DNA from: Candidatus Collierbacteria bacterium GW2011_GWA2_42_17 | GTDB lineage: Bacteria; Patescibacteriota; Microgenomatia; UBA1400; MFAQ01 | Reading direction: 5' to 3' | NCBI GenBank assembly: GCA_000998275.1 | Contig: LCDA01000002.1 | Location: 46,708 to 110,707 of the forward strand | Length of the DNA: 64,000 bases | Part shown: piece by piece, positions 22,984-24,898 of the stretch | Numbering within the stretch: the stretch's first letter is position 1 | Layout of the letters: every line of letters begins with the position of its first letter | Notes under the pieces: generated by a model | Told to the model about the DNA's origin: nothing | Databases searched by the model: none | What the model saw: only the letters and a program-made list of their open reading frames with translations | Made by a program: the position numbers and the translations under genes

Positions 22984-24834
22984 TTAATCGGAAGGTTTTT
23001 CTTGTTCTTGTTCTTGTTCTTCTTTCTTTGCCCCCGGCTTGTGCCAGCTGGCCCAAGTACAGTTTGGATAGTCTTCGCAACCATAAAAATCTCTCCCCGT
23101 TCGTGTCTTTTTAAGTACTACTCTCTTGCCACACTTTTCGCACTTTACCCCTGGAACATACTCAATAAAAGGAGCCGTATACTTACACTCGGGATATCTC
23201 GAACAAGATAAAAACTTCCCAAACTTACCGTCGCGAACTACCACTTCGCCTTCATGACAAAGCGGGCATTTCTTTCCTGTACCTACCGTCGGCACACCCA
23301 CCCTTGCACTATCTTTGTCTACTCTTAGAATATTGTCTCGGAACAAACCCCAAAAATTACTTAACATCTTTTTCCATTTAAGCTTTCCCTCGGCTATATC
23401 ATCTAGCTCACTTTCCATTTTGGCGGTAAACTCATAATCCATCTCCTTCGGAAAGTTTGTTACCAAAAAATCTACCACGGCCACCCCTATCGATGTCGGG
23501 AAAAACTTTCTTTCTCTCTGCTCCACGTAACGTCTGTCTATGATTGTCGAGATAATCGCCGCGTAGGTACTTGGCCTTCCAATACCTCTTTTTTCCAACT
23601 CTTTAATCAATGAGGCGTCATTAAATCTTGCCGGTGGTTGAGTGAACTTTTGCTCCCCAACTACCTTATTCTTTTTCAGTTTTTCGTTTACCTCCAACAT
23701 CGGTAAAATCTGTTCTTCGTCTTTGTCTTTATCTTTCAGAAACAACTTCTTCCACCCGGCAAACTTTATCACCGCTCCGGTTGCCGTCAGCTCGTTTTCC
23801 CCCGCCCTTACGATTACCTTGGTATCGTCGAAAATGGCATCGCTCATCTGGCAACCTACCGTTCTTCTCCATATTAATGAATAAAGCTTTTCTTGATCAT
23901 GGGCCATCTCCTGTCCGGTAAATTTATCCGGTGAAATCTCTATATGTGTCGGACGAACCGCTTCGTGGGCTTCCTGGGCAACCACTTTTCCGGCCGTTTT
24001 ATACACTCTGGGTGTACCCGGCAAAAACTCGGCCCCATATTTTTCACCAATGAATTTGCGAATCTCTTCAATCACCGTCGGCACCAAGTTAAATGAATCG
24101 GTACGGTGATAAGTGATATCACCTTGCTCGTAGAGTTTTTGAGCCACATTCATTGTTTTCTTCGCCGACCAACCCAAAACATTAGCTGCCGCCTGTTGTA
24201 AGGTGGAAGTTTTGAATGGTGAATGGGGAGCAGTTCTTCTCTCGGACTTTTTAACACTATCAACCAAGTACTCAGCACTTTCCAGCTCTGCCAAAACTAC
24301 TTTTGCCTTTTCCCCTTCATGAATATCGGCCACCTTTCCTTTAATCCGTGCCAACTCGACTTCAAACTTCTCTCCTTTCTTCGTTTCCACCTCCACTTTT
24401 ATCTGCCAGTACTCTTCCGGCTTAAACTTCTCAATCTCTCTTTCCTTCTCCACAATCAAACGCACCGCCACGCTTTGTACTCTTCCGGCCGAAAGACCAC
24501 GACGAACCTTCTTCCACAAAATTGGTGACAGTTTGTAACCTACCAAACGATCCAGAAAACGTCTGGCCTGCTGGGCATCAACCAAGTTAATATCAATTGC
24601 TCTCGGGTGTTCTAGAGCCTCCATAATGGCTTCCTTAGTGATGGAATGGAAAGCAATTCTCTTAAACACCAGTTTCTCTTTCTTGGCCAACTTCCTTGAG
24701 TTCTTGAGTATGTGTTCCACATGCCAGGCAATTGCTTCTCCTTCACGGTCAGGGTCGGCCGCCAGTATCACTTCATCAACCTTAGCTGCCGCATCTTCCA
24801 GCTTCTTTACTGGAAGCCAAAATTTGGTAATCAC
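22984..24834 (-). CDS. topA: DNA topoisomerase I; main ORF with a GTG start. The canonical N-terminus is encoded in another frame (see 24782..24898).
   Basis: Toprim DxDxEGE ([13 protein letters not shown]), type IA core motifs, and C-terminal Zn ribbons ([21 protein letters not shown]). The first Toprim strand with the catalytic Glu is absent from this frame. Confidence 0.85.
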   Translation of the reverse strand: [616 protein letters not shown]

Positions 24835-24898
24835 TCCCTAAATACTTCCCTAAGCTTTTTGTTTTGGTAGGAGACTCAACAATAATTAGTTTATTCAT
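24782..24898 (-). pseudogene. topA: Out-of-frame 5' fragment of topA encoding the canonical N-terminus ([30 protein letters not shown]...)
   Basis: An ATG at 24898 opens a frame whose product matches the TopA N-terminus (IVESPxKxK.L.KYLGSDY). It hits a stop after 38 codons. The main ORF sits in the +1 frame downstream of an a4t3 homopolymer at about 24819-24826. Confidence 0.6.

Follow-up and report, generated by a model that had tools for sequence, protein, structure and literature searches.

The topA locus

The window is the whole stretch of DNA analysed, 64,000 nt of contig LCDA01000002.1 from Candidatus Collierbacteria bacterium GW2011_GWA2_42_17, and all positions refer to it. The gene for DNA topoisomerase I (topA) lies on the minus strand and is read there as two ORFs in different frames. 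The first, of 38 aa, runs in the ORF list from an ATG at 24898 to a stop at 24782. The second, of 616 aa, starts at a GTG at 24834, preceded by an in-frame TAG (24840-24838) and a single GGA codon; the two ORFs overlap by 53 nt. The first-pass annotation, made from the sequence alone, had already described topA as interrupted, with its canonical N-terminus in another frame and its long ORF starting at that GTG after an in-frame stop, and this was borne out. In the 96-position Toprim model of Pfam, the 38-aa ORF covers positions 1-28 and the 616-aa ORF only positions 47-94, while positions 29-46 are absent from both. A complete Toprim domain (the catalytic Glu strand, GHxRDLP and DxDxE) is therefore not found in one frame. 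The core of the enzyme is nevertheless present: the 616-aa ORF matches Topoisom_bac (PF01131; E = 3.9e-130) over profile positions 2-410 of 411, contains the active-site tyrosine motif ITYHRTDS, and matches PF01396 in two stretches, corresponding to two C-terminal Zn ribbons. The features of the locus, numbered against an intact 676-aa TopA (P0001, see below), are as follows:

24812..24898, minus strand: 5′ topA fragment, codons 1-29 of the 676-aa TopA (tblastn of P0001, 100%; Toprim 1-28)
inside 24812..24898, minus strand: Toprim glutamate, in IIVESP
24819..24825, minus strand: A3T4 run (AAA 24825-24823, TTTT 24822-24819), the same in intact alleles
24811..24834, minus strand: spurious N-terminal extension MITKFWLP of the 616-aa ORF; produced by out-of-frame reading of the true 5′ coding sequence
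24810..24812, minus strand: drop-out junction (alignment and BLAST); the A at 24811 can be assigned to either side
24782..24811, minus strand: spurious tail of the 38-aa ORF (S KEAGRCGS stop); produced by reading the true 3′ coding sequence in another frame
22984..24810, minus strand: 3′ part of topA, codons 69-676 plus stop (tblastn 24810-22987, 100%; PF01131, PF01396), holding the remainder of Toprim (DPDREGE), Topoisom_bac with ITYHRTDS, and the two Zn ribbons

A promoter scan of the DNA upstream of topA found nothing. A strong terminator-like hairpin (24962-24983, minus strand; 9-bp stem with 6 GC pairs, followed by a T tail) sits between a Band_7/SPFH gene and the topA start.

A single 116-bp block is missing from topA

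The closest database protein, P0001, is 676 aa long and 100% identical to the long ORF of the window. The window was aligned with the DNA of three independent public assemblies that encode P0001 (L081, L082 and L083). It agreed with them base for base from the promoter region, past the start codon and through the A3T4 run; then, beginning 8 nt downstream of that run, a single clean block of 116 bp (ATGGGACATG...GGGGAACA) is missing from the window, after which identity restarts at (A)GTAAAGAAGCTGG. The join is blunt, lying at position 24811 between ...GGCTTCC(A) and GTAAAGAAG... with an ambiguity of 1 nt, which is also the extent of the microhomology at the junction; the sequence across it reads ...GGCTTCCAGTAAAGAAG... 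In BLAST comparisons, both segments of L081, L082, L083 and a fourth contig, L084, end at 24811, with a net 116 nt more in each of these loci. At the protein level, tblastn of P0001 matched residues 1-29 and 69-676 at 100%, residues 30-68 (39 aa) being lost. The frame shifts because 116 = 3 × 38 + 2, so that one drop-out accounts together for the change of frame and for the missing GH..DLP segment. The absence of that segment had been noticed in the first-pass annotation; it was, however, put at about 25 residues instead of 39 (116 nt), and was treated as a lesion separate from the frameshift, when a single deletion of 3n+2 bp causes both. The window has neither Ns nor any other direct sign that a gap was once there.

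The frameshift itself had been ascribed to a one-base lesion at a homopolymer described as a4t3 (the run is in fact A3T4, 24825-24819), which, combined with a lineage-specific short N-terminus, would explain the locus as a one-base error or slip. Deleting one T does arithmetically fuse the two frames. The run is, however, unchanged in the intact alleles, the real difference being the block downstream of it, and full-length orthologs all hold 34-63 residues, with GH.RDLP, at the place where a short N-terminus would be needed. The alignment with L081, L082 and L083 refutes this model, and we assign it practically no probability.

The missing segment is conserved in TopA orthologs

Alignment of orthologs had been proposed as a means of recognizing a short N-terminus as a feature of the lineage. 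In every full-length ortholog (n = 115) the segment between the two flanks was kept, at a length of 34-63 residues, and its GH.RDLP core was conserved in at least 95% of them; no part of the N-terminal region of TopA is better conserved than the stretch contained in this segment. The few apparently short matches were truncated fragments or truncated gene calls. Intact P0001, whose Toprim domain is complete and in one frame, resembles known type IA TopA proteins, with which it shares the Toprim, Topoisom_bac and Zn-ribbon domains: its N-terminal 203 residues align end to end (E = 1.8e-61 to 1e-48) with solved structures (PDB 6OZW, Thermotoga maritima 2GAI, Mycobacterium 5D5H and E. coli 1ECL). 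The window copy differs from these in that it lacks residues 30-68 and is frameshifted; by structure alignment, the lost residues correspond approximately to E. coli TopA from ∼31 (GHIRDLP) to ∼92. A search for a second type IA topoisomerase within the 64-kb window found none.

These comparisons also bear on the idea, raised in the first-pass annotation, of a frameshift-dependent (recoded) gene, and on that of a functional TopA in two pieces. Adjacent ORFs in different frames with a 53-nt overlap are the kind of arrangement on which both draw. No ortholog, however, shows such an organization: all 115 full-length orthologs, as well as the contigs with identical DNA, are single-frame. DNA that is identical except for the 116-bp block encodes the 676-aa TopA in one frame elsewhere, with the A3T4 run lying inside ordinary in-frame coding sequence, and any joined or two-piece product would still be without 39 conserved Toprim residues. 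The orthologs and the single-frame identical DNA effectively refute recoding and a two-piece enzyme, for which we see next to no chance.

Intact and split topA in public assemblies

Compared with the window, L081 and L083 showed 100.000% identity over 7.9 kb and 5.5 kb, respectively, the 116-bp block being the sole difference; the block is present in L082 and L084 as well. NCBI, JGI, ENA and Logan together supplied 27 contigs (63 index blocks) with the intact 676-aa P0001, among them one of the sister assembly GW2011_GWB2_42_12. In contrast, only one contig of the at least 28 encodes the 616-aa product (P0121); it is 129,180 bp long and comes from NCBI/UniRef alone. P0121 corresponds to KKS43186.1 and UniRef100_A0A0G1BA36, is identical to the 616-aa ORF of the window, falls within the P0001 cluster, and has as its record Candidatus Collierbacteria bacterium GW2011_GWA2_42_17. 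The difference is therefore confined to a single assembly, the sequence around it being the same as in the other assemblies of this population, which do not reproduce the lesion. A genuine frameshift pseudogene in a reduced genome would likewise appear as a 5′-truncated ORF with an out-of-frame stub upstream, but it should turn up again whenever the population is assembled independently.

Other look-ups added little. The 36-nt junction sequence was absent from JGI metagenome contigs, a weak negative given that few contigs of this population are there, and a degenerate pattern fitting both alleles hit one contig only in the JGI scan, L084, which is intact at the site. Exact-product look-ups with the 616-aa and 38-aa ORFs returned no match even though the former protein is listed as P0121, and are thus uninformative. 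The assembly name GW2011_GWA2_42_17 had no mention in the searchable literature.

The whole 64-kb window was also tiled against public contigs encoding identical proteins. ENA 'ANAN16' scaffolds, MEGAHIT k141 contigs, two JGI contigs and a TPA assembly were collinear with it at 99.9-100% identity. Relative to contigs at least 99.98% identical, indels of ≥3 nt were limited, over the full window, to the 116-bp gap and a 183-nt duplication difference (described below).

Private gaps in sister GW2011 assemblies

Three sister GW2011 GenBank assemblies contain ten blunt gaps of 17-64 bp at sites different from that of the window, each private relative to the window and to all other contigs compared. 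With positions given as their window equivalents, they are:

29364-29413: 50-bp gap, L084 (GW2011_GWF1_42_50)
26915-26962: 48-bp gap, L084 (GW2011_GWF1_42_50)
24919-24961: 43-bp gap, L084 (GW2011_GWF1_42_50)
23918-23934: 17-bp gap, L084 (GW2011_GWF1_42_50); topA broken at a different place, giving the 366-aa P0122
3323-3380: 58-bp gap, L086 (LCCO01); YchF split into 201 + 145 aa
34698-34761: 64-bp gap, L093 (LCCO01)
32590-32626: 37-bp gap, L093 (LCCO01); deformylase (def) gene call lost
57204-57230: 27-bp gap, L101 (LCEA01)
56091-56123: 33-bp gap, L101 (LCEA01)
52205-52230: 26-bp gap, L101 (LCEA01); PRPP synthetase (prs) split

The genes broken or shortened include those for MreB, PBP2, TopA, YchF, peptide deformylase and PRPP synthetase, among others. 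No such gaps relative to the window were found in the MEGAHIT, ENA and JGI re-assemblies; the same class of error thus recurs at unrelated sites in assemblies of the same series and is absent where independent assemblers were used, which suggests a systematic problem in the GW2011 assembly series. Taking the ten sister gaps and that of the window together, microhomology was 0-1 nt at 11/11 junctions, and the length was a multiple of three in only 3/11. This pattern fits random loss of sequence, not slippage, repeat collapse or deletions filtered by selection; slippage and k-mer collapse are ruled out as the cause by the 0-1 nt of junction microhomology. The 43-bp gap of L084 starts exactly at the 3′ edge of the terminator-like hairpin at 24962-24983.

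A related kind of loss was seen in L087 (DMOJ01000028.1), a scaffolded TPA assembly of the same population, in which 'NN' at 3993-3994, 11673-11674 and 16701-16702 stands in place of 88, 113 and 70 bp, respectively. Its scaffold gap lengths are badly underestimated, and assembling this population from short reads does therefore leave unresolved gaps of such a size.

Origin of the split topA

Taken together, these data make it very probable that the split topA arose in the GW2011_GWA2_42_17 record as a silent scaffold gap or an error of local assembly. A sequencing or assembly error was among the three options in the first-pass annotation; the assembly error is now the best supported of them, while the homopolymer slip offered as its mechanism was wrong. 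Scaffolding or automated local re-assembly (the pipeline step is our inference) would have dropped 116 bp inside topA, and the flanks would then have been joined with no gap marker. Such a join would delete TopA residues 30-68 and shift the frame; gene callers would then call the 616-aa ORF from a fortuitous GTG, leaving the 38-aa stub upstream. For the organism itself, an ordinary, intact 676-aa type IA topoisomerase is most likely, as in every other assembly of the population, and the assembly process, not a real allele, is most likely the cause of the exact, private 116-bp difference.

Errors of this sort have been described. IDBA-UD assemblies frequently suffer from scaffolding gaps and errors of local assembly, through which wrong protein sequences reach databases; 13 such errors were counted in one 1.13-Mb CPR genome (Chen et al. 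2020, Genome Res; PMC7111523). The window gap resembles those errors in being confined to one assembly, blunt and gene-disrupting, with sister assemblies gapped elsewhere, and the 'NN' placeholders of underestimated length in the other assembly of this population also fit that class (PMC7111523). It differs from the class in that the window junction bears no N run or marker, hence the record gives no warning.

The main alternative is that the 116-bp deletion is a real allele, i.e. that the (sub)population of the GWA2 sample has a genuine topA null or pseudogene that was faithfully assembled. TopA loss is tolerable in some bacteria with compensating changes. The split sequence stands in the GenBank record as deposited, and blunt deletions with low microhomology happen in nature. 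Nevertheless, over tens of kilobases not one SNP separates the flanks from the intact contigs, and any real deletion must therefore be extremely recent; a fixed topA null under these conditions would need a very recent, deleterious sweep. The rarity of the split form among the contigs, and the lack of a second type IA topoisomerase within the window, also count against it. Further, the sister assemblies of the same study are gapped in other core genes, with random effects on the frame. That a different core gene should be knocked out in each sister sample is not credible as biology, and a technical cause accounts for the pattern far better than a series of independent knock-outs would. A real deletion is therefore considered improbable, and so, at the low end of the same estimate, is a very recent topA-null allele dominating the Collierbacteria population of one groundwater filter sample. 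Were it true, a CPR bacterium would persist, at least transiently, without functional topoisomerase I.

With an assembly error as the preferred reading, topA itself offers no new biology, and the importance of the case is mainly one of data hygiene. A truncated 616-aa 'DNA topoisomerase 1' now stands in GenBank (KKS43186.1) and UniRef (UniRef100_A0A0G1BA36), and similar silent drop-outs hit other core genes in sister GW2011 assemblies. In these early CPR draft genomes, counts of pseudogenes, 'missing' functions and odd domain architectures should be checked against re-assemblies before being read biologically.

Other features of the window and its relatives

The 183-nt difference lies in a giant Gly/Thr/Asn-rich ORF of 1773 aa (41954-47275, minus strand), at ∼43992-44137. 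The window has a single copy of a 183-nt (61-aa) unit, which is tandemly duplicated (143/146 identical; protein of 1834 aa) in L090, L092, L096-L098 and L100, assemblies otherwise identical to the window; the short form is also seen in L091 (1773 aa) and L099 (1772 aa). Either the copy number is truly polymorphic or a repeat has collapsed. Repeat searches of the giant ORF in the window, including TRF, detected no repeat, since the unit duplicated elsewhere occurs just once there. The corresponding gene calls in sister contigs have no Pfam match on record.

A ThyX homolog (21371-22972, plus strand) has 533 aa, roughly double what is usual, and contains two Thy1 (PF02511) stretches. A gene of the same 533 aa is called in all sister contigs, so that a genuine fusion or duplication of ThyX seems likely.

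Finally, L099, a contig of a related strain (∼99.2-99.5% identical), is without 710 bp of the window (51150-51859) and has 18 bp of its own instead. The 710-bp stretch holds the gene for a 184-aa NUDIX hydrolase (51216-51770) and adjoins a tRNA-Trp (51077-51148); the difference is likely a real strain-level indel.
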